Assembly: GCA_050014495.1 (NCBI GenBank)
Contig: JBEKDF010000014.1
Coordinates: 1 to 64,000, forward strand
Source: Candidatus Bathyarchaeia archaeon
Lineage (GTDB): Archaea > Thermoproteota > Bathyarchaeia > TCS64
Direction of reading: 5' to 3'
DNA: 64,000 nucleotides
Position numbers and translations under genes: made by a program
Part shown: positions 2,316-16,187 of the stretch, one piece after another
Numbering within the stretch: position 1 is the first letter of the stretch
How the letters are laid out: the number at the start of each line of letters is the position of its first letter
The notes under the pieces: generated by a model
What the model was told of the DNA's origin: nothing
The model's input: only the letters and a program-made list of their open reading frames with translations
The model's database searches: none

Positions 2316-2891
2316 TCAAAGAAATGTCTCAGGTTCCTTCCGATCTGGGAAAGTATCATGAAGCCACTTCGCCTCCTTGACGAAGAATGGGTGTGTCATC
2401 ACCCTTGCGCCTGTTGGACAGTTTTTGATGCATGCGTAGCATCTTATACAGGCCTGCTTCTGCGTCTCGACTGTGGAGCCGATTGTTATGGCGGCGTTTG
2501 GGCAGACCTCAGCGCATTTGCCACACTTTGTACAGGTTTCCTCTTTCGTGATTGGGGCAGGTGGCTCGGTACCGGGTTTGGCTGCGCGGGATATTCGGAA
2601 TTCGTCTCTGTATGGGCGGTTACCGTTGACGGCTATCGAAGGGAGGTCCTCTTTGTTCCTAGCAGTTAATAGCTTCTCCCTGATTTTCGAGCCGAATTCC
2701 CGGGCTTTTTTAAGGTCGGAGCCATCTGGGCGACCTGCGGCTATGGGGACTTCTGGGGAGCTGAATGAGTGTTCAGCGATGAAGGCGCCGCCCGCGATGG
2801 GCTTGAATCCAAGCTCTGAGATTAGGTCGGTCAGCTCGATTAGGGCGTCTTCGTATGCCCTATTACCGTAATACAACCAGGGTGACTGCGG
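2316..2891 (-). pseudogene. EFR1-type flavodoxin/ferredoxin, 5'-truncated and frameshifted
   Basis: YGNRAYEDAL, AEHSFS, GRPD and two CxxCxxCxxxCP motifs. The upstream PAVTLVV lies in another frame (one extra T), and the gene is cut at the GC palindrome 2891-2902. Confidence 0.8.
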
Positions 2892-2901
2892 GCGCGCGCG
2901 C

Positions 2902-3542
2902 CTGTGTGATGGCTCCGGCGAACGAGAACGAGAAGAGACACGCCTCTACGCTGGGGGAGAGGACCAGGGTCGTCCTCCGCAGGGCGGGGGCGGGGCTGAG
3001 GAGGTTGATCGGCGACAGCCAGTACAGCAGTGCTAGGGTTAGGAGCCTCGTCGAGGAGTCGGTGATACCCTACACCGCGAATCAGCGCGGCGACGGTCTG
3101 AGGGTGGATAGGTGGTTTAGGACGCATGGTCCACCTGGGCTGGTGTCGGAGTATAGGAAGCGTCCCATGGTGGAGGCGCTCTTCGCTTTCTTGAGGACCC
3201 AGTTCGGCTTGAATGTGGTTAGGGTGAGGGGTTTGTGGGTGTCTCCGTCTACTCTCTGCTGAGTATGTTGTGCTGTGTGTTGAATAGGGAGGCGGCGGAG
3301 AACATGGGTCGGCCGGAGAAGGCGATGTCGCCGTCGTTCTTTAACACGTGAAGGTTCGCAGATTCGTGGGGTGCGGGGGGTTTGTTAGTGGGTGTTGGGC
3401 TTGTGTGTGTCGTTTTTCAGTCGTTTTTGCTGGTTGTGTGGTTTGTCATCGGGGTTTTACTTGTGTGGTGTTTTCGCTGGGGTTGTTTGTTGGGGTTTTG
3501 TTGGTGATTGTTGTTCTATGTATTTAATTTAGGGACGAGCTA
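2902..3542 (+). mobile_element. IS remnant: C-terminal half of a DDE transposase (IS4/IS5 superfamily), frameshifted, with G/T-rich 3' tail and right end
   Basis: PANENE, LIGDSQYSS (second catalytic Asp) and YRKRPMVEALFAFLR (YREK-like). The reading continues in another frame as VSVYSLLSMLCC...FFNT* ending at 3351. Putative end ...AATTTAGGGACGAGCTA at ~3542. Confidence 0.8.
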
Positions 3543-5549: not shown

Positions 5550-7826
5550 ATGAGAATATTACGCGCTCGCAATTTTTTCGTTCCAACAATATTTGTGATC
5601 TTCATCTTCCTCTTTACACAAATCCCGGACTGTAAATGTGCGCAACCTCAAGTTTCCTATACTCTGAGCTACTCCGTAAATGGGGGAGGGAACAGATACT
5701 CCCCGCCCACAGTAACCTACACATCAAATGGCGTACAGCATATTCAGATACTTGGTTCACAGGTAACCACCTATCGCCTCGACGTGAACACACAATGGAG
5801 CATCACAAACCCACTTTCAGGCTCACTGCCATACGAGAGATGGCAAACGAACCAGAACACAGCGGGTACAGCTAATGCCAACCAAACTATAGCATTAGTC
5901 TATTACCATCAAGTCACAGTGCAGTTTGGATACAACATCCTCAAAGGAGGCTCCGGATTCTCACCTCCATACGTATCCTATACAAGGTTTGGGTCAGCAA
6001 TGGCAAACAAGACGGTGACTATCGTTTGGGTGGACTACGGGTCAGCCTACTCCTACGTTAATCCACTAGCGGGGTCAAAACTGGGTGAGAGATGGATCAC
6101 CGCTAAACCCACTGGCACTGTAACCTCCTCGACCCTGATCACCCCAGACTATTATCACCAATACTACATAGTCTTCGACTACGGCATCAGCGGAGGCGGC
6201 AATCCCACTGCCCCCTCGGTAAAATACATTGCTTTGGGACTTGACCAGGACCCATTGCAGGCCAACCCTAGCCAGTCAACCTGGGCAGACGCCCAGTCAA
6301 CCTACACATACTCGCCCAATCCCCTAACTAGCTCTGGTACGAATGAGAGGTGGCAGGCCTCAACCACACCCTCCGGAACAGTCTCATCCTCAACAACCAT
6401 AAGACCCGTCTACTATCATCAGCTACTCCTGACGCTATCATACAATATATTAGGAGGCGGTTCGCCAAGTCAACCATCATTCAGGGCTCCAGCATTTGGC
6501 TCCAACTCAAAGCAGGCTCTCACAACATCGCCGACCAACTATTGGTTTGATAGTGGCGCCTCGTGGACCGAGGCGGGCACGCTCGATGGATCGAGCCTCA
6601 CCGAGCGCTGGAGCACCGGGCAACCTATAACCGGGGTAATTACCATCACGAAGACCCTATCATTTAACTACTACCACCAATACGCTGTAACCCTAAATTA
6701 CAGGGTCAGCGGGGGCACTGGATTCACTCAGCCAACAGTTAACATAATCAGCTTTGGTATAGCGACTTCGACTAACTCTACCTCCAATCTCTGGCTAGAC
6801 AGCGGCTCCAGTTACAATTTTCAAAACCCACTGATCGGTTCAAACGATTCAGAGAGGTGGTATGCAGCCACCTCAACCGGAAACATCCAGGCAACGGGAA
6901 CAATTGCTAAGCTCTACTACCATCAATTCAGCGTCATCTTCAGTTTCACTACACTGTACGGCGGCTCACCTAATTCACCATCTATCAAATACGTTTCCCT
7001 CGGATCATCATCTACGCAAGAAGTGACATCCGCCGATTCATCAACTTGGGCTGACGCAAACACGACTTACACGTATCCGCAGATACTTCTAGGAGGCTCA
7101 GATTCTGAAAGATGGCTGATCACTCCCTCAGTCAACGGTAAAATAACGAGCTCCATTAAGGTGTCTCCAACTTACCTGCATCAATACTATGTGAAGATAG
7201 AACCAAGTCTAACGATAGCCGGATCCGCGTCACAACCCAGCGACTGGCATAACTCGACTTCCCAAATATCAATATACCCAACGGCTGCAGATGGCTGGCG
7301 TTTCGAGGGTTGGGCCGGCAGCGGGGAAGGGTCCTACACGGGTCCTTTGCTAAATGCCACGTTCATTGTCTCGGCCCCAATTACGGAGAAGATGATATTT
7401 TACCCCGGCTTGAAAATTAATGCAAATGGCTGGGGCTACATCGCCTACACCCTTAATTCCAGCAACGCCACAGTAAACGCTGGGAACCTCACAACAGTCT
7501 ATGTACCAGTCGGGACAACTCTAGGACTAAGCGAGCATCCTAATTCCTTCCTCTATTCATTCATCAACTGGACTGGGGAAGTGAACAGCACATCCAACTT
7601 CATCATATTAACAATCAACAAGCCATTAAACGAACAGGCGAACTTCGGGTATAACTACCTACTCATCGGACTGATCGTAGGAATCGAAGCTGCCATCGTA
7701 ATAATAGCCTATTTTGCATCGGGTGGACGCTCGCATAACATCATAAAGCTCATCGCGAAGGCAAAAGCTGTGATGAAAACCAAACTGAACCGTAACGATA
7801 CACGTGTGGTCGAGTCAAACCAATAA
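5550..7826 (+). CDS. Cell-surface protein with six ~85-aa beta-rich repeats, two further repeat domains and a C-terminal TM anchor
   Basis: Signal peptide; repeats Y.I.GGG..P...W.D.GS.Y...NPL.GS..ERW...YYHQ; WRFEGWAG and FINWTG motifs; TM segment YLLIGLIVGIEAAIVIIAYF followed by a basic tail. Confidence 0.85.
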   Translation: MRILRARNFFVPTIFVIFIFLFTQIPDCKCAQPQVSYTLSYSVNGGGNRYSPPTVTYTSNGVQHIQILGSQVTTYRLDVNTQWSITNPLSGSLPYERWQTNQNTAGTANANQTIALVYYHQVTVQFGYNILKGGSGFSPPYVSYTRFGSAMANKTVTIVWVDYGSAYSYVNPLAGSKLGERWITAKPTGTVTSSTLITPDYYHQYYIVFDYGISGGGNPTAPSVKYIALGLDQDPLQANPSQSTWADAQSTYTYSPNPLTSSGTNERWQASTTPSGTVSSSTTIRPVYYHQLLLTLSYNILGGGSPSQPSFRAPAFGSNSKQALTTSPTNYWFDSGASWTEAGTLDGSSLTERWSTGQPITGVITITKTLSFNYYHQYAVTLNYRVSGGTGFTQPTVNIISFGIATSTNSTSNLWLDSGSSYNFQNPLIGSNDSERWYAATSTGNIQATGTIAKLYYHQFSVIFSFTTLYGGSPNSPSIKYVSLGSSSTQEVTSADSSTWADANTTYTYPQILLGGSDSERWLITPSVNGKITSSIKVSPTYLHQYYVKIEPSLTIAGSASQPSDWHNSTSQISIYPTAADGWRFEGWAGSGEGSYTGPLLNATFIVSAPITEKMIFYPGLKINANGWGYIAYTLNSSNATVNAGNLTTVYVPVGTTLGLSEHPNSFLYSFINWTGEVNSTSNFIILTINKPLNEQANFGYNYLLIGLIVGIEAAIVIIAYFASGGRSHNIIKLIAKAKAVMKTKLNRNDTRVVESNQ

Positions 7827-8591
7827 CTAATTTTTCCCAAGCAGAACATCTGGACTCAAGACGGCAATCTCTGAGTAGAGACTCTTAGTCGCGTCCACAA
7901 ACGCGGAGCCAGAGGTGGCTTCCCAGGTCAACTTCTTTGCAGCGACTTTCCCCAGCAGCTCAAGTGGCTTAGAAGGGTCAGCCCTTCTCAGCATCGCCTC
8001 CTGGACAGATGCGACACCGAATATCATCGCGTACACTCTCTGCATGTTTACTTCGCTAATAATTGGCTTAAGCAACAGGAGATTTGACTCCATCTCAGAG
8101 TAGGGTCCAATCAGGGACTGCGAGAGCATCCCCCTGAATTGGGTCACCGGATCCTCTCCTTCGCCAACCCTTTCCAACTTGCGCATAATCGCCTCACGTG
8201 GGTTAACACTCAGCTCCCTGAGATCCTCCATCGCCTTCGCGCGTTCCAAGAGGAAGTTGATTACGGAGGTGTCTACAGTTTTGACTATTTTCTCCCTTCT
8301 CTCACGTTCTAGACTGTAAGGTTTGTTTACGATATCAGTTATTTGGTCATAGGTTGCCTTGTCGATGATATCGAATGAAAGGTCGTTAATCCTTAATTTG
8401 AGCCCATCTACAGAGATCTTTGTGGAGTCACCGTAAGTAGTATGCCCAACAGGGATCAACTCGGAGCTTCTCAGGGTCTTTTTCAGCTTAGACACGCCTA
8501 TAGTCTTCTCTTCCTCGACTATCCTGATTTCACCGGCTTCGTAGTATTCTCCCCTGAACCAGATATTCCAAACCTTCGTCGAGTAAACCAC
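7827..8591 (-). CDS. Hypothetical protein (beta-rich, possibly PH-like N-domain plus helical C-domain); last gene of the tubulin-like operon
   Basis: 254-aa ORF abutting the upstream gene (8592/8591). Confidence 0.75.
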   Translation of the reverse strand: MVYSTKVWNIWFRGEYYEAGEIRIVEEEKTIGVSKLKKTLRSSELIPVGHTTYGDSTKISVDGLKLRINDLSFDIIDKATYDQITDIVNKPYSLERERREKIVKTVDTSVINFLLERAKAMEDLRELSVNPREAIMRKLERVGEGEDPVTQFRGMLSQSLIGPYSEMESNLLLLKPIISEVNMQRVYAMIFGVASVQEAMLRRADPSKPLELLGKVAAKKLTWEATSGSAFVDATKSLYSEIAVLSPDVLLGKN

Positions 8592-9635
8592 CTAATTCAC
8601 CCCCAAGCTCAACGACGGTATCCTCCTCGCTATCGATCTATACCCGGCCTCGATTTTCTCCAAGATAGGGTCCTCGCTGAGTCCATAGAAAATGTATAGG
8701 TCGCAGAAGTTGTATCGGGAGGATTTCTCACGTAAAATAACCTCGGAGTTTAGGAGATCCTTGAAGCCCAAGCAATAGTTCTTGAAGGTATCCTCTATCC
8801 CTAGGCGAAGCTCCCTTGGCGATAGCCCAAGAAGGTGGATGCTCTGGTAGCCTCCCTCGACGCCTTCGATGGAGTTCATGAAGGCGTTAATTTTGAATAA
8901 AGTCTCCATGTTCCTATAGACCTGATCCGAGGCGGAGAGGAGGGTAGAGATGGAGTGATTCATTATTCCGAGTTTCTTGTCACCCTCGATAAAGTGGCTC
9001 AGAGTTTGGATATTGGATGCTAGGTTTTTGACGACTTCCTCAAACGCAGCATCACCAGTGATCAACCCCTGGTCCTCGTCGAAGTAGGCGAGGCTTTTGA
9101 CATATTTTTCCTCAACAAGGACTAACGACCACCCCTTTTCATGCGCTTTTTTCAGGGCAATGTAGCACGTGTTTTTAACCAGTGGGGTTGAGGAATCATC
9201 CGCAGTTATAGCCAGCATTGTTTCGTTTCCCTCCAGCATGGAACTGTTTAGGGTGGCTAAAGATAGTGGACTGTTAGTGTTCACTACAATCATTTTATAT
9301 TTTGAGATATTGTAGCAGACTCTCCTCAACCACCCGTCGATTTGATTCGAGCACCTTTTTGAGTAGTCGAGCCATGTCCCTCCGTCTATCTGCTTCAGGG
9401 TAAGTGATTTTGTTGCCTCAGCGTCTTCGCTGCCAATCACAATCTTTGATACAAATGCATCCTTTACTTCAGCGCAATCGAGGCCTACGAACAGTACAAT
9501 AAGGTCCTCAAACCTCACCTCCGTCTCCGGGAGGTCGACTAGTTCCCTAACGAGTTGATCGTAGGGAACAGGCGAATTGCACTCTGGGCAATTCAGATCC
9601 CAGACGGTTGCATGGCAGTTCTGGCAGCTAGGCAT
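8592..9635 (-). CDS. Zn-ribbon protein with a probable degenerate tubulin/CetZ-like fold
   Basis: CQNC...CPEC at the N-terminus; alpha/beta pattern; C-terminal LYIFYGLSEDPILEKI resembles the CetZ C-terminal strand; overlaps the upstream gene by 8 nt. Confidence 0.7.
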   Translation of the reverse strand: MPSCQNCHATVWDLNCPECNSPVPYDQLVRELVDLPETEVRFEDLIVLFVGLDCAEVKDAFVSKIVIGSEDAEATKSLTLKQIDGGTWLDYSKRCSNQIDGWLRRVCYNISKYKMIVVNTNSPLSLATLNSSMLEGNETMLAITADDSSTPLVKNTCYIALKKAHEKGWSLVLVEEKYVKSLAYFDEDQGLITGDAAFEEVVKNLASNIQTLSHFIEGDKKLGIMNHSISTLLSASDQVYRNMETLFKINAFMNSIEGVEGGYQSIHLLGLSPRELRLGIEDTFKNYCLGFKDLLNSEVILREKSSRYNFCDLYIFYGLSEDPILEKIEAGYRSIARRIPSLSLGVN

Positions 9636-11886
9636 TTTTCATTATAACCTCTTTATCCTCATCATATTTTATCTCCGGGTTATTGTTAGCGTAGTAAGCT
9701 GCATAAATCTGGGCTGCTCTGCGCTGAAAAGGGAGAGTGGAGATCTCGAGTGCATTCTGTTCGGCTAACTCGTTTTTAATGATCTTCATAGCTACGGGCA
9801 GCTGGGATAGGATTATGAGATTGCCCTCGTCCGACTTCTTGCTGGCTCCATAATTCTTCATAAAGTCCGTCAACTCCTCAACGATCTCGGTCGAATCACG
9901 TAGGGTTGGTTTGGCGTTTAGGTTTCTATCCCTCAGGCTCTGAAGTCTCGTGGAGTAGTTGAAGACCTCGAAGTGGATGACCTTCGTGGTCCCTGGAAAG
10001 CTGTTGATGAGCTTTTGGAGTTGGGTGATCTCGCCCGAGACGTCGTTGAGAACATCATCTAAGGTCTGTTTAAGGTTCTTAACCTCCTCGAGTATCAGAA
10101 TAGAGTTAACTGGCTTAGGTTCTGCTAATTTTTCAGTCATGAGTTTTAGCGTCTGTCCCCTCTTCTGGTCTAGGAGTTCAATCAGACTCTCGGTCTTCTC
10201 CAGCAGTGATGCTACGAGGCTCTCTAGCTCGGGTTGGTTCTTTATGTGGAAGTTGAGCCAATATTCCTCCGCGAGCAGCTTGACGCCACCTTCATAGTCG
10301 TTGGATTCGAATAGTCGGGTGGGATCCACCGGCGGGTGCACGTCAAGCTGGGAGGTTACAACGTTGAAGGCGTTAAAGGTAGCCTTGTAGGTGTTGAAGA
10401 TGTCTTTTGAATTATTCTTAATATCGTTGAGAAGAAGCGAGTAGTCTTTAAGGGCCTGGTTAAAATCCAGGTTTCTATTTACTTCCGCCAATTCGGAGAA
10501 GCTCTTCTTTAACCCCACCTCCTTTAATATGTTGTTGTAAGTGACGACGAGTGAAATGAGGTAGTGCAGCTCACCTGTCACCCTGACTCTGACTGCATCT
10601 GAAAAATGCATCGCCTTCGGTGTCAGAACGTTATCCAGCTCTTGGATCCACTCATTAAGAGTCTCGAAACTTGCAGTGCTAAAACCCCTCCAATAGTCGT
10701 TTATGGTTGACTCCGTCTCCTCCACGGTTTTCGCTTCAGGGCTAAGTATGATTGAGGGGGCCTCAAGTGTGGCTTGGTTAATCAATTTTTTACATGGGTC
10801 TATTAGCTTCTTTATGGCTCCGATCTTCTGTGAAACTTCGATCCTCGCCTTCTCCGTCCTCTCCAGCAACTGGATCCCATACTCCCTCGCAGTGAAGACT
10901 GCGCCAAGAACAAGCGATGACATAGCCATCCAGATCATTGTTGAGGTGTCGAGAGACGTCTGATAGCCGCCTATGTTGGTTTGCGAAAGTACTGTTATGA
11001 GTATGTAGAAGGTGAGCGGCGTCACTATGGAAGCGACGATGGGAGAAATCAAATGCAACATCTGGTTAGCCTGCTCAAATACTGAAAACTTATCAAGAAA
11101 ACTGCTTATTCCACTAGCCACTCCGGCGGATAGGATGAATATTAGGAAGAGGATGATTAGTGGTATCAAGAGGAAAAAAACCATTCCGTTGGAGAGGTAG
11201 TTTTTGACCGGCGCAGCGACAAGGGGGTTGTAGAAGTCGGGGGAGACATTGGTTAGGAAGATGTTAAGCCCTGGTATAGGGGGGCGCATATACTTGGAGA
11301 AGTTGATGAGCTGTGTAAAGATAAGGGGTGTAGTACGCGTTAATTGGCTACCCGCCTCAGAGATGAAGGCGTTCTCAACCACTAGGAGAGGTATCATAGT
11401 CAGAACGTAGGTTAAAGAGACTGGGCCAATGCTTGAGAGCCCACCGATTATGGCCGCCGCAACTATCAGTGGCACAGAGAGATAGTAGTAAGGCGTGAAC
11501 ATCATGGCTACTGCGAGGATGGCTATAGCCATCGATGTGGCTTCATGCCTGGCGCTGAATAGGTTGACCAGTAGAGCCCCCACGGAGATTATGATGAATG
11601 CTAATCCTGCATTGTTTGTAACTGTCCAAACAGAGAAGCCGGTTAGTTGGTAGAAGATTGTTATGAAGACGATGAGACTGAGAATTGTTGAGGAAAACTT
11701 CGGGTTATAGTGGAGAGCAGTAGAGAAGAGGAGGATCGAGACTAGTAGAGGAAATACGGGTGCGCCTGGTAGAAAGTTGATAGCAGCCATGAAGGCAAAG
11801 GAGGAGATACCAATTATCGTGGCTGAGGTATACTTGTCTACGGTTGCGCGTAACTTGGGAGTGATCTCTTTGAATTCGATCTCCAC
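9628..11886 (-). CDS. Polytopic membrane protein (~9-10 TM) with a ~400-aa helical C-terminal region
   Basis: Hydrophobic segments over aa ~20-335, then an E/K/L-rich helical sequence. Confidence 0.85.
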   Translation of the reverse strand: MEIEFKEITPKLRATVDKYTSATIIGISSFAFMAAINFLPGAPVFPLLVSILLFSTALHYNPKFSSTILSLIVFITIFYQLTGFSVWTVTNNAGLAFIIISVGALLVNLFSARHEATSMAIAILAVAMMFTPYYYLSVPLIVAAAIIGGLSSIGPVSLTYVLTMIPLLVVENAFISEAGSQLTRTTPLIFTQLINFSKYMRPPIPGLNIFLTNVSPDFYNPLVAAPVKNYLSNGMVFFLLIPLIILFLIFILSAGVASGISSFLDKFSVFEQANQMLHLISPIVASIVTPLTFYILITVLSQTNIGGYQTSLDTSTMIWMAMSSLVLGAVFTAREYGIQLLERTEKARIEVSQKIGAIKKLIDPCKKLINQATLEAPSIILSPEAKTVEETESTINDYWRGFSTASFETLNEWIQELDNVLTPKAMHFSDAVRVRVTGELHYLISLVVTYNNILKEVGLKKSFSELAEVNRNLDFNQALKDYSLLLNDIKNNSKDIFNTYKATFNAFNVVTSQLDVHPPVDPTRLFESNDYEGGVKLLAEEYWLNFHIKNQPELESLVASLLEKTESLIELLDQKRGQTLKLMTEKLAEPKPVNSILILEEVKNLKQTLDDVLNDVSGEITQLQKLINSFPGTTKVIHFEVFNYSTRLQSLRDRNLNAKPTLRDSTEIVEELTDFMKNYGASKKSDEGNLIILSQLPVAMKIIKNELAEQNALEISTLPFQRRAAQIYAAYYANNNPEIKYDEDKEVIMKNA

Positions 11887-11891
11887 CCCAC

Positions 11892-14504
11892 CTACTCGTC
11901 ACCTATATTGGCCAGCTCGGAGACGTCGTGGATTCCCTGCTCGAGGAGGAGGCTGCGGAATAGCACCCTCTCAGATTTCTTTACCGAGTCTGCATCGCTC
12001 TTCATCGAGGAGAACTTCTCTAGGTCTTCCATCCTCGCTTTGGCGAAGATGACGAGGAATGTGATCGTCCACGGGTCGATCTGGTCGATCTGCCTTATTG
12101 AGATGCTTTTGCTAGCTTCCACGCTTGAGAAGACGTTAAGTGTGTTAGATAGCATGCCCTGCAGCTGCTGGTCCCATAGACCCCCCGGGATGCTTACGGT
12201 TGTCCAGATGAGATCAGTGCGGTAATGGTCAGAGAGGCCCACGTAGTTTGCTACGCTGAATATCCTAACGTAGGACTTCACAATGTCCCTGAATCGGTCG
12301 CGGTCAACGATGTCCTTGAGGATGCCGTCGCCCTTTAGGTTAGATTCCTCCTCCTTAAGGATCTTGTCCATTATCTTTACTTGCTCGACCTCACTCAGCT
12401 CGACGACGCGTTCATAATAGTTGCCCGTCTTCGTAATCTGACTGAGGGCAGCGTTCAGCTCGTTTGTCTTTGTATAAACGAAGTTGAGGTTCTTGCGGTA
12501 GGTGGAGGTGACCTCGAGGCTCTTCTCGAACAGGGTCATCTTCTCAACCTCCTGCCTAATCGACTCCAGTGCGATCTTATGCTCATCGTAGTTGCTCCTT
12601 ATATTGATGAGCTCAGTCTGCAGGTTTTTGAGGTTCTTCTCAAGCACCCTCTTCTTGCCGTCGAAGTCAACCCAAATTTTGTTGACCTCGTTCTTGATTC
12701 GCTTCTCCTCGGATTCCTTCTGGTTCAGCTGCCTCTGCAGCGACTCGACGTCCCCCGACTCTTCTTTTAACCTCGACTCTATATTTTTTCTTATGATCTT
12801 TATGCTAGGGACATAGTTATCGCTCATCTTGATCTCGGTCTCGGCACGCGTTAGAATGACTCCCGCGGTCTTATACAGGGGGAGAAGCTCAGTGTCGCCG
12901 ATTGTGCTGATCCTTATTCCAGTTCTCGATTTGTCTTTGGTGTATCGTATAGCGAGTTCATCGGCCAGTGCTTTGCTTCTCAAGTAGCTCTTGGTTGTGT
13001 CTATCGCTACCGCTAGAAGGGTTATCAGGTTAATGTATGACCTTATCTGCCGTATCTGGGTCGATGTGAGAAACTTGCTTGCTGTGATGCTATTCTCGAG
13101 CTCCGACATGAACTGCTGGACTGTCTTGTTGTAGTCCTCGTAGTTCTTATCGATGTGAACTATTCTCTCCCTGAAAACATTGATCTGCTGCATTACCGAA
13201 TACTCAACCGTGTCCTCAGAGAAGTTTAGAGCCATAAGAGTCTTGTTCCACTTATCATTATAGTAGGCCGCAAAGTCACTTAGACCCTTGATCTGCTTTC
13301 TTAACTCTGACTCGTACTTACCGCCCCTGTGGATTACGTCCTCAACATCGTTGTTGAAGGTGTCAGCTCTGTATCCGCCCACCGCTATAAGTTGCCTCTT
13401 GTAGAGTTCGACGAACTCATTGTATCGGTTATTGAGAATGTCGTTGATCTTGCTGAGGACGTCCCTCTTGGAGTTCATCAGTTCCCCAGCGTTGTCGGCA
13501 AGTTGGAGGTACTCATGCAGGTATTTCACATAGTCATCAACTGGGTATTTGATCTTGAGGTAAGCTATCGAGTGTATCCAGTTGGAGCCAAAGTCGTTGT
13601 TGGTTCCCACCCTCGATAAGAGGTCAGCTAGGTCGAAGCTGCTGAACATGTTTAAGATGTCTATCACAGAGTCGTCGAGCTCCTTTTTCGCCGTCATTAG
13701 GTTGTTGCGGTTGTTGTATATGGGGTCTAGCGCCATGAAGAAGAGGGAGTTGAGAGGGTTCTTGTAGGCGTCTCCGTATTTTTTGACTATCTGCTCGTTG
13801 AGGGTGTTGTTGAAGAAGAGCTCCAACTCCATGAGCGCGTTGTATGGGGCGGGACCTCGTGCGAGGAGGTCATCAGCTGTGCTTGGGAGTATCGTCATTC
13901 CAATTATTGGGACCGATGAACCGAGTTTGGATCTGAGGTGGCGAGCAAAGTCCATGACCATTCCACTGCCGGTTCCGCCACCTAGCCCAAAGAGGACAAC
14001 AACTATTGGTTGGAATTTGGAGGTTAAGACACGGTCCTTGAAGACCGACATCACAGAGTTCAACTCGGAGTAGTGGAAGTAGTTGAGGTTGTATACGGCC
14101 TTGCTGAGGGCCCTCTGGCGCCCGACACCTCCCGCGAGTGGGGGAATGGAGATTGAGGATTTTAGCCAAGGCTGGTAGTTCTTGATCTGAATACCCTCCT
14201 TCTCAACGTACTTATCGTATTTCTCCATGAACTCGAAGAGCGAGTCGGGTGTGTTGAATTTGATGTTCAGAGCCCTTACCCAAAGCTTCTCCACCGGTAT
14301 GCCCTTTGACGCTAGTTTCTCGAGCGTGGCCTTGTACGCATTCTGGAGGTTGTTTAAGTCTCCGTCAGCTACATCTATGGCAAGGCAGGCGATGCTGAAG
14401 TCCTCAGATTGAAGTAGGTTCTGAAGACGAGCGCTCTCTAGAAGAGTCTGAATGAGGTTTGCCCCGGTACCCCCTAAACCAATGAGGTGAATGTTGGAGA
14501 ACAT
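11892..14504 (-). CDS. Tubulin/FtsZ-superfamily GTPase with a long coiled-coil insertion (FtsZl/Tubulin_2-like)
   Basis: IGLGGTG (T1), GGVGRQR (T3), GLGGGTGSG signature (T4), ILPS (T5), FDLADL (T7-like); heptad-rich aa ~330-740; alpha/beta C-terminal segment. Confidence 0.92.
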   Translation of the reverse strand: MFSNIHLIGLGGTGANLIQTLLESARLQNLLQSEDFSIACLAIDVADGDLNNLQNAYKATLEKLASKGIPVEKLWVRALNIKFNTPDSLFEFMEKYDKYVEKEGIQIKNYQPWLKSSISIPPLAGGVGRQRALSKAVYNLNYFHYSELNSVMSVFKDRVLTSKFQPIVVVLFGLGGGTGSGMVMDFARHLRSKLGSSVPIIGMTILPSTADDLLARGPAPYNALMELELFFNNTLNEQIVKKYGDAYKNPLNSLFFMALDPIYNNRNNLMTAKKELDDSVIDILNMFSSFDLADLLSRVGTNNDFGSNWIHSIAYLKIKYPVDDYVKYLHEYLQLADNAGELMNSKRDVLSKINDILNNRYNEFVELYKRQLIAVGGYRADTFNNDVEDVIHRGGKYESELRKQIKGLSDFAAYYNDKWNKTLMALNFSEDTVEYSVMQQINVFRERIVHIDKNYEDYNKTVQQFMSELENSITASKFLTSTQIRQIRSYINLITLLAVAIDTTKSYLRSKALADELAIRYTKDKSRTGIRISTIGDTELLPLYKTAGVILTRAETEIKMSDNYVPSIKIIRKNIESRLKEESGDVESLQRQLNQKESEEKRIKNEVNKIWVDFDGKKRVLEKNLKNLQTELINIRSNYDEHKIALESIRQEVEKMTLFEKSLEVTSTYRKNLNFVYTKTNELNAALSQITKTGNYYERVVELSEVEQVKIMDKILKEEESNLKGDGILKDIVDRDRFRDIVKSYVRIFSVANYVGLSDHYRTDLIWTTVSIPGGLWDQQLQGMLSNTLNVFSSVEASKSISIRQIDQIDPWTITFLVIFAKARMEDLEKFSSMKSDADSVKKSERVLFRSLLLEQGIHDVSELANIGDE

Positions 14505-14510
14505 GTCAAA

Positions 14511-15467
14511 CTATGCCTCTTCGAGTTTGTCTCGGAGCCTCTTCAGCTCACCGGCGAGTGACTCATCGTATCGCGCCGCTGTGACCTCTAGACCCGCCAG
14601 CTGGTTCCGTGTGTCATCTATTGTTGACTGCTTCATGGTTGCCTTCGAGTTGGCCCGAGAGAACATGAGGAAACCTAAGACTGCCGCTACCGCTACCAAA
14701 ACCACAGCCCCAATTAGAATAGTCTGAAGTGAGTTATTAGGCGGAGGTGGGAAGTTGCTGGTGTTGATCACGTTCAAGATATCCGTTGCCTTCTCGGGTA
14801 GCCCGAGGTTATATATAATATCCGCTTGTGCGAGTACTCCATTTACTAGTGACTCATAAGATTTGTCTATCTGTCCCGCTGATATCATGTTGGATTTCTG
14901 GTTGGCTGTTGATAGGTAGTTCTCTATGGATGGGTCAGAGACGTTGAGGCTAATGACGCCAACTGATGAGCCTCCAGTGACAAAGATCTGAATGAGGGAG
15001 TAATTCTTTAGCATGAATCGATAGGTTTGGCCTAGTGCCTGCTTGGTTGTTACATCAGCAGGGATCTGAAAGAGAACCTCAAGTTGGATCTTTCCCTCAA
15101 CTTGCTTGAATAGGATGCTTCTTTCACCTGGGGTGAATGTAGCTGAATTGTATCCTCCATAGTTCTTCGTGAGCAAGTACCAATATTGTGTCACGCTGGG
15201 AGACATGGCACTACTTAGTGATACATTGAAGTTTGAGCCATTTTGGGTGAATGGCACGTCAACCTGCAATGTTAAGTTGTATGAATCGCCGGCGAGGAGT
15301 GGTTGTCCTATGGGCACAGGTGTTTTGCTCGTCTTATCCTGTATAGATATAGTAGAGGCCCAATTTGTGGAGGCGCCGAAGACGGTTGTTAAAGGCCCCA
15401 TTATATAGCTGGCAATTATCAGCGTTATCAGTAGGTATTTAGTCACTCTGTGATTCATGGTTGACAT
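14511..15467 (-). CDS. Secreted/membrane-anchored protein; first gene of the tubulin-like operon
   Basis: N-terminal signal peptide, beta-rich N/S/T-rich ectodomain, PPPP linker, C-terminal TM and short coiled-coil tail. Confidence 0.85.
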   Translation of the reverse strand: MSTMNHRVTKYLLITLIIASYIMGPLTTVFGASTNWASTISIQDKTSKTPVPIGQPLLAGDSYNLTLQVDVPFTQNGSNFNVSLSSAMSPSVTQYWYLLTKNYGGYNSATFTPGERSILFKQVEGKIQLEVLFQIPADVTTKQALGQTYRFMLKNYSLIQIFVTGGSSVGVISLNVSDPSIENYLSTANQKSNMISAGQIDKSYESLVNGVLAQADIIYNLGLPEKATDILNVINTSNFPPPPNNSLQTILIGAVVLVAVAAVLGFLMFSRANSKATMKQSTIDDTRNQLAGLEVTAARYDESLAGELKRLRDKLEEA

Positions 15468-15758: not shown

Positions 15759-16187
15759 TCAAACATTTGTTGTTCTCCACACATTACTCAACCCTATTTT
15801 ATGACCTCTTTTCACCAACTGTATGCAGTTTCCCCATGAATCACTAAGAATAACCAGGTAATCCCCAGGTAGAGATATTGGACATTTTTCGATAAATTTC
15901 GCTCCCTTATCGATCAGTGAAAGCATTTCCCTCTCGGGATCGTCGCATTTCAAAGCAATGTGAAGTTGAAGATTATGACTCATCACTTTTGAGAGTGGTT
16001 CCACATCTGGGACTTAAAAAAGTTCAACTGTGACTTTTTCGTCGAAATCGGTTATGAATGCCATTGCCTTTTCATCGTCTTTCGCCGAAAATTTGATTTT
16101 AAAACCCAGGACTTCCCGGTACCAGTTAGCCATTTCGATTGGTTTATCGACGCTTATTCCAATATGTTCTATCTCATAGTTCTTCAC
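15759..16187 (-). pseudogene. VOC/glyoxalase family protein with an internal nonsense codon
   Basis: GTG start; KNYEIEHIGISV...WYREVLGF...VELF*VPDVEPL...HIAL...DSWGNCIQL; one in-frame TAA at 16014-16016. Confidence 0.85.

Follow-up and report, generated by a model that had tools for sequence, protein, structure and literature searches.

A conserved five-gene module in Bathyarchaeia and other archaea encodes a stalked tubulin homologue and a second, degenerate tubulin fold

RESULTS

Organization of the locus

The window analysed here is a 64,000-nt stretch of contig JBEKDF010000014.1 from a Candidatus Bathyarchaeia archaeon. Five genes, designated A, T, M, D and P, lie together on its minus strand. 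The module, its constituent features and the adjacent surface-protein gene are listed below with the basis of each assignment.

7827..15467, minus strand: module of five genes A, T, M, D and P (ORF list)
14511..15467, minus strand: gene A, 318 aa, with a predicted signal peptide, an extracellular region, a transmembrane (TM) segment at residues 250-268 and a conserved cytoplasmic tail of ~50 aa (hydropathy)
11892..14504, minus strand: gene T, 870 aa, Tubulin_2/FtsZl1-type, with GTPase motifs and a long helical stalk (PF13809, AF2, Foldseek)
13962..13982, minus strand: T4 GTP-binding loop GGGTGSG of T, residues 175-181 (alignment)
13623..13637, minus strand: T7 catalytic-loop motif FDLAD of T, residues 290-294 (alignment)
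12255..13541, minus strand: helical stalk of T, residues ~322-750, ~430 aa (AF2 secondary structure)
9628..11886, minus strand: gene M, 752 aa, with ~8 predicted TM helices and a soluble tail of ~400 aa (hydropathy)
8592..9635, minus strand: gene D, 347 aa, with a CxxC...CxxC knuckle and a tubulin fold without T1, T4 and T7 (AF2, Foldseek, profiles)
7827..8591, minus strand: gene P, 254 aa, soluble, with a beta-rich N-terminal and a helical C-terminal region (hydropathy, profiles)
5550..7826, plus strand: repeat-rich predicted surface protein, 758 aa, convergent to the module and not part of its core (weak Flg_new_2 match)

A sequence-only reading of this DNA had described a tightly spaced operon, and recomputing the intergenic distances from the ORF coordinates returned the same values of 6, 5, −8 and 0 nt. 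Most of its gene descriptions also held. Hydropathy analysis identified an N-terminal hydrophobic segment and one TM segment in A, which had been called a secreted single-pass protein, and eight TM segments in M, which had been called polytopic with a long helical tail. The segments of M all fall within residues 21-301, and its tail, which is likely helical, closes with a conserved domain of ~70 aa. As also described, GGGTGSG is present in the 870-aa T protein and the 254-aa P protein has no TM segment; T and D were likewise devoid of TM segments in the same scan. D had been taken for a Zn-ribbon alpha/beta protein. The CxxC...CxxC knuckle is indeed found at its N-terminus, but its fold is that of a second, degenerate tubulin (see below).

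None of the A (73 members), M (51 members) or P (22 members) families gave a Pfam match, and searches of PDB sequences with profiles of the three families returned no convincing relative, just generic helical or designed proteins. Nothing outside its own clusters was found for M in the Atlas. For the last ~70 aa of M, PDB and Pfam searches gave no support to a winged-helix identity. The three subfamilies of P are weakly joined by hhalign (E 2e-6 to 8e-3), and the N-terminal beta-rich region of P may resemble a PH-like fold.

Genes flanking the module are variable and mostly housekeeping, and include those for large secreted proteins and for STT3 and PMT glycosyltransferases. The absence of a vWA or Ras-like partner, remarked on in the sequence-only reading, agrees with two scans. 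When 472 flank ORFs were scanned for motifs, neither a MIDAS-like match nor a small GTPase was found, the sole GTPase-like match being an ABC ATPase by sequence. Pfam was run on 90 proteins from the flanks, of which 86 were drawn from the 206 cluster representatives located within 3.5 kb and 4 were others; none was a vWA protein, a kinase or a Ras-like GTPase. The neighbour that recurs most often is a homologue of the surface protein, which is directly adjacent in 12 of 106 loci, a raw count that includes near-duplicates. In the window it converges on the module, and in 9 other loci it precedes the module on the module's own strand. Upstream of the operon, window positions 15759-16180 (minus strand) presumably hold a glyoxalase/VOC-type gene, the ORF of which is interrupted by an in-frame stop near 16013, and a short ORF at 2855-3262 (plus strand) may be a transposase remnant.

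Conservation and distribution of the module

Loci were considered well flanked when they contained at least 1.2 kb upstream and at least 5 kb downstream of T, which was the case for 45 of the 106 loci, near-duplicates included. All five genes were detected together in 37 of these 45 loci, five had no detected P, two contained A and T only, and one contained T only. Among the 89 loci with 1.2 kb or more of sequence before T, 87 contained A. Several gene orders were observed, i.e. A-T-M-D-P, A-T-(D inverted)-M-P, A-T-M-P-D, and M-D-P upstream of A-T. The gene set therefore holds through inversion and relocation of D, and the M-D-P block shifts as one. From these data we conclude that the five genes form one co-inherited module rather than a chance arrangement.

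T was found in 76 of 401 genomes of the class and D in 76 of the same 401. Both were present in 71 of the 81 genomes holding either, with five containing T only and five D only by hand count; several of these single-gene cases lie at contig borders, and the class genomes include kin that are not independent. In genome G067 (98% complete) T is present and A, M and D were undetected, and genome G692 carries D without T. The lone 960-aa T homologue of G067 (L031, 8408-11290) adjoins cdc6 and has an extra terminal CxxC...CxxC Zn ribbon, otherwise a feature of D.

T was also identified in 16 of 401 phylum genomes and in 2 of the 17 other genomes of the window's genus. Its closest named relatives are from Bathyarchaeota genomes (94% and 86% identity). 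Named homologues among the matches listed come from Nitrososphaerales, Geothermarchaeales, Caldisphaera, Sulfolobus tengchongensis (WP_338602146.1), Saccharolobus caldissimus (WP_229569299.1) and Dehalococcoidia. When 47 Sulfolobaceae-family genomes were searched with T at E<=0.001, eight matched: two near-complete genomes with five intact genes, one with a frameshifted T, one with an SSO1376-like protein, and four with weak partial matches. The frameshift breaks T in a locus where all five genes are present (G768, L157 7514-10167). No relative of T was found in viral contigs. The module is patchy across Bathyarchaeia, Nitrososphaerales and Sulfolobaceae, and likely also occurs in Dehalococcoidia, probably via transfer.

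T is a tubulin homologue with intact GTPase motifs

T belongs to the FtsZ/tubulin superfamily. It scored 61.2 bits against Tubulin_2 PF13809 (cut-off 27) and 34.5 bits against Tubulin PF00091 (cut-off 33); the FtsZ model TIGR00065 gave 16 bits (cut-off 295), far below the score of a canonical FtsZ. Taken together, profile, model and alignment place in T a tubulin GTPase fold in which the T1, T4 and T7 motifs are present. The AF2 model (pLDDT 88.3, pTM 0.77) had CetZ, FtsZ and TubZ as its top Foldseek matches across ~330 columns. The best 120 of 412 matches were taken as the homologue set, and 86 of those 120 were aligned. All five T4 glycines were kept in 86 of 86 aligned homologues, as were F290, D291 and D294 of T7, and DFAD of FtsZ pairs with FDLAD of T in the alignment. 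The invariant T4 glycines and T7 aspartates support a filament-forming protein: T likely polymerises with GTP, and by analogy with FtsZ we infer that it would hydrolyse GTP head-to-tail.

A tree of 94 sequences and 207 columns was constructed by quick search under LG+G4, with tubulins, TubZ and the named 2010 FtsZl1 seeds left out. T forms its own clade (SH-aLRT 97), sister to a stalkless family (95), and in this tree without the named seeds it joins Tubulin_2-positive proteins at a support of 80. The FtsZ/CetZ clade (98) excludes T. Members of the stalkless family are ~510-590 aa in length and have no T7 DxxD. They occur as tandem tubulin-like pairs flanking a ~100-aa gene in Rhodococcus and Agrobacterium plasmids (L143, 9860-13440; L144, 7866-15609). 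The pairs adjoin an aliphatic amidase and a nickel transporter, or CbtA/B, CbbQ and vWA genes, and might function in the assembly of enzymes or metal centres. Given this setting of amidase, nickel/cobalt transport and CbbQ/vWA genes, tubulin folds of the clade need not be cytoskeletal.

A long helical stalk likely splits the C-domain of T

The AF2 model of T consists of the GTPase domain, a strand at residues 310-319, helices spanning residues 322-750, and a C-terminal piece at residues 766-849 that has a strand-helix-strand-strand-helix-helix, alpha/beta arrangement. Conservation is 0.74 for the GTPase domain and C-piece, compared with 0.55-0.61 for the stalk (residues 322-690). In profile comparisons, residues 750-865 matched the C-terminal region of the stalkless sister family (probability 97.6, E 4e-12), whereas the stalk did not align with that family (E 0.23). 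Because only the former region has a counterpart in the sister family, the tubulin C-domain of T is likely split by the stalk as an inserted segment, a reading drawn from the model and the profiles. Profile alignment of the C-piece failed with FtsZ (E 0.19) and with D (E 0.038), which leaves the split-domain reading indirect. We take the insertion to lie at about the tubulin M-loop/H9 position, which is lateral.

D is a second tubulin fold that has lost its nucleotide-binding motifs

The window's own D gave no Pfam match, and PF00091 was matched by 11 of 63 D homologues. The AF2 model of D (pLDDT 91.9) was matched by Foldseek to CetZ (E 9.9e-11), the gamma-tubulin small complex (1.5e-10) and TubZ (1.8e-10), with TM-scores by query of 0.5-0.6 to CetZ, TubZ and tubulin, and the Atlas search also points to a tubulin fold. 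D homologues form three neighbourhood subfamilies that are united on iterated profiles, and the D profile aligned with FtsZ from T4 into the C-domain (probability 91, E 1e-6). Model and profile searches thus agree that D is a second tubulin fold.

The motifs of D are degenerate. In the window's D the T1 place reads FVGLDC and the T4 place reads NTNSPLS, and in D sequences T7 is deleted or replaced by DPGY. Across the 63 homologues, the T4 GTP loop is intact in six, partly decayed (G-x-GS type) in nine and lost in the rest, and judging by these sequences GTP binding is likely absent from D in most lineages. In the four aligned of the six intact-loop homologues, the place of the DLAD of T is taken by DPGY or DPGF. 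All six likely sit in Dehalococcoidia loci, as judged from named cluster members of the related T and from the top Atlas cluster. A Cys knuckle was found in 34 of 63 homologues with a rough pattern. Monophyly of T and D was not rejected (p-AU 0.405), D being a long branch of uncertain place.

DISCUSSION

Proposed mechanism and alternatives

The interpretation that we tentatively favour, at somewhat short of even confidence, is that T forms a membrane-held filament, likely capped or nucleated by D, that remodels the envelope locally. The T filament would be held at the membrane by M and A through the helical stalk, a tethering supported by the cytoplasmic tail predicted for each of these membrane proteins. 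The stalk, which we place at about the lateral M-loop/H9 position of tubulin, would extend to the side without blocking the head-to-tail faces, and would tie T to the M and A tails. D would end or seed the filament, like gamma-tubulin or a non-catalytic subunit, since it cannot trigger hydrolysis and likely cannot bind GTP in most lineages. P would serve as a soluble adaptor, and A would join the site to the cell exterior. The cellular job would most likely be to build or position a surface structure or contact site, which is the weakest step of the proposal. An envelope function is supported by the surface-protein neighbour in those 12 of 106 loci (raw count), and by the membrane remodelling proposed for FtsZl1 (PMC2875224). 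Counted against the proposal are the T of G067, which occurs without A, M and D, and the D of G692, which occurs without T, indicating that linkage is not obligate. The gene setting of the stalkless sister family and the restriction of the surface-protein neighbour to a minority of loci also weigh against it. We regard as doubtful a more specific version, with a tubulin filament densely lined with stalks, a dedicated nucleotide-dead tubulin as its nucleator or cap, and a link through the membrane to a protein of the surface.

The same components could instead constitute a GTP switch, with T and D acting as a dimer or short oligomer that cycles a complex of M and A, e.g. in export or assembly of surface proteins. 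The bulky stalk of the AF2 model would suit such a device, as would the stalkless sister family with its tandem pairs beside enzyme and metal-handling genes, and the large secreted proteins, STT3 and PMT glycosyltransferases in the flanks; a non-filamentous FtsZl1 is allowed by Makarova and Koonin (PMC2875224). We nevertheless think a switch rather unlikely, as the GTP face and the T7 face of T are both invariant, which is expected for a head-to-tail homopolymer, and D has no catalytic loop of the kind that activating T would take. A conflict (defence) system, with polymerisation of the tubulin set off by a sensor at the surface as in the systems of Kaur et al. 2020, is likewise unlikely. Its appeal lies in the patchy spread of T (2 of 17 and 76 of 401 genomes in genus and class, respectively), in insertion sites that vary, in a transfer that likely reached Dehalococcoidia, and in the tubulin-coiled-coil genes, at times two, that PMC7159879 assigns to conflict systems. 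However, the flanks contained no GAP, TRAFAC GTPase, vWA, kinase or variable effector that we could find, the five-gene content is fixed and apparently single copy per genome among mostly housekeeping neighbours, and viral contigs yielded no example.

That T replaces FtsZ in division, or serves as a general cell-shape system, is very improbable. T is the only PF00091 match in the window's genome (96% complete), in which no canonical FtsZ was found, and 41 of 76 T-positive genomes have no strong PF00091 match (E<1e-20, tallied by hand). The other 35 of these 76 genomes also carry a strong FtsZ-type match, however, and this coexistence makes a division role unlikely. In addition, 15 of the 17 other genomes of the genus have no T, most of them without any PF00091 match (4 of the 17 have one), and of the 47 Sulfolobaceae-family genomes no more than 3 gave a full-length T match, which in one of them is frameshifted. 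With FtsZ and T coexisting so often and the genus mostly without both, FtsZ replacement was rejected as a general role.

Should the more specific version be correct, the stalked-filament machine would be a self-contained prokaryotic cytoskeleton with D as a functional analogue of gamma-tubulin. If D does cap or seed T filaments, a pseudo-GTPase that regulates a tubulin would have arisen here independently. The module offers a closed parts list of five genes together with active-site predictions of one live and one dead tubulin, and the D family provides a natural series of GTP-loop loss across lineages. The Sulfolobaceae carriers make the question testable, as they supply thermophilic proteins near a genetic model lineage.

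Relationship to known systems

The sequence-only reading had proposed a distinct and possibly undescribed apparatus. The module is conserved and we found no description of it, but T falls inside the known Tubulin_2/FtsZl1 radiation. Our literature search, in which subscription papers, book chapters and supplements could still hold one, turned up no description of the module and no experimental study of FtsZl1/Tubulin_2 proteins. The module is not described in the passages retrieved from PMC9723716, PMC13394414 and PMC9856176, and in the portion of PMC9871819 available, Tubulin_2 proteins serve solely as an outgroup. We conclude that this is a conserved module, apparently undescribed as a system, within the known FtsZl1/Tubulin_2 kind.

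FtsZl1 was defined by Makarova and Koonin, whose 2010 analysis proposed that its operons with vWA, kinase and GTPase partners remodel membranes, could not identify T6-H7/T7 in FtsZl1, and allowed that the protein may form no filaments (PMC2875224). T resembles FtsZl1 in its above-cut-off N-terminal match to PF13809, its extended coiled-coil region (helices 322-750), the membrane proteins in its operon, its patchy spread and the occurrence of FtsZ in the same genomes. It differs from FtsZl1 as described there in its clear and invariant T7 FDLAD, in an alpha/beta C-piece rather than a mostly helical C-terminal domain, in the fixed second degenerate tubulin of its module, and in forming its own clade (SH-aLRT 97); moreover, no vWA, kinase, P-loop GTPase or OmpA partner was found with the module.

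The same paper predicts a crenarchaeal FtsZ-like subfamily from SSO1376 (PMC2875224). Like T, the SSO1376/SSO1378 system includes a Tubulin_2-type coiled-coil protein of Sulfolobales, there followed by two uncharacterised genes. An SSO1376-like locus (G147, L154 3425-9707) encodes an uninterrupted 1051-aa tubulin with three N-terminal TM segments and an FDLDD T7-like motif, followed by genes for a 769-aa membrane protein and a 264-aa protein. The T profile matched the 1051-aa tubulin with an E of only 2.5e-7, a distant relationship, and its neighbours matched none of A, M, D and P. Identity of the module with the SSO1376 system was rejected, as T has no N-terminal TM segments and the L154 partners gave no match to those of T, L154 having been typed by gene lengths and TM segments rather than by sequence. 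A long Tubulin_2 protein of another kind of locus, on a Methanohalobium plasmid (L177, 7762-21072), lies among pilin/archaellin-like, PGF-pre-PGF and S-layer genes, and so again in the company of surface proteins.

The GAP1-N2 and DO-GTPase systems of Kaur et al. 2020 (PMC7159879) share with the module a tubulin-coiled-coil fusion, sometimes two tubulin genes, and membrane partners. They differ from it in that no TRAFAC GTPase, GAP1, vWA, FNIII or HSP70 was found near the module. With CetZ, BtubAB/AtubAB and gamma-tubulin the module has in common the fold of both T and D, for which these were among the top structural matches, and with AtubAB (PMC13394414) two tubulin genes per operon with one non-catalytic partner. 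It is set apart from all of these by the 430-aa stalk of T and the position of T outside the FtsZ/CetZ clade, by a D without a GTP loop, and by the membrane partners encoded in the same operon.
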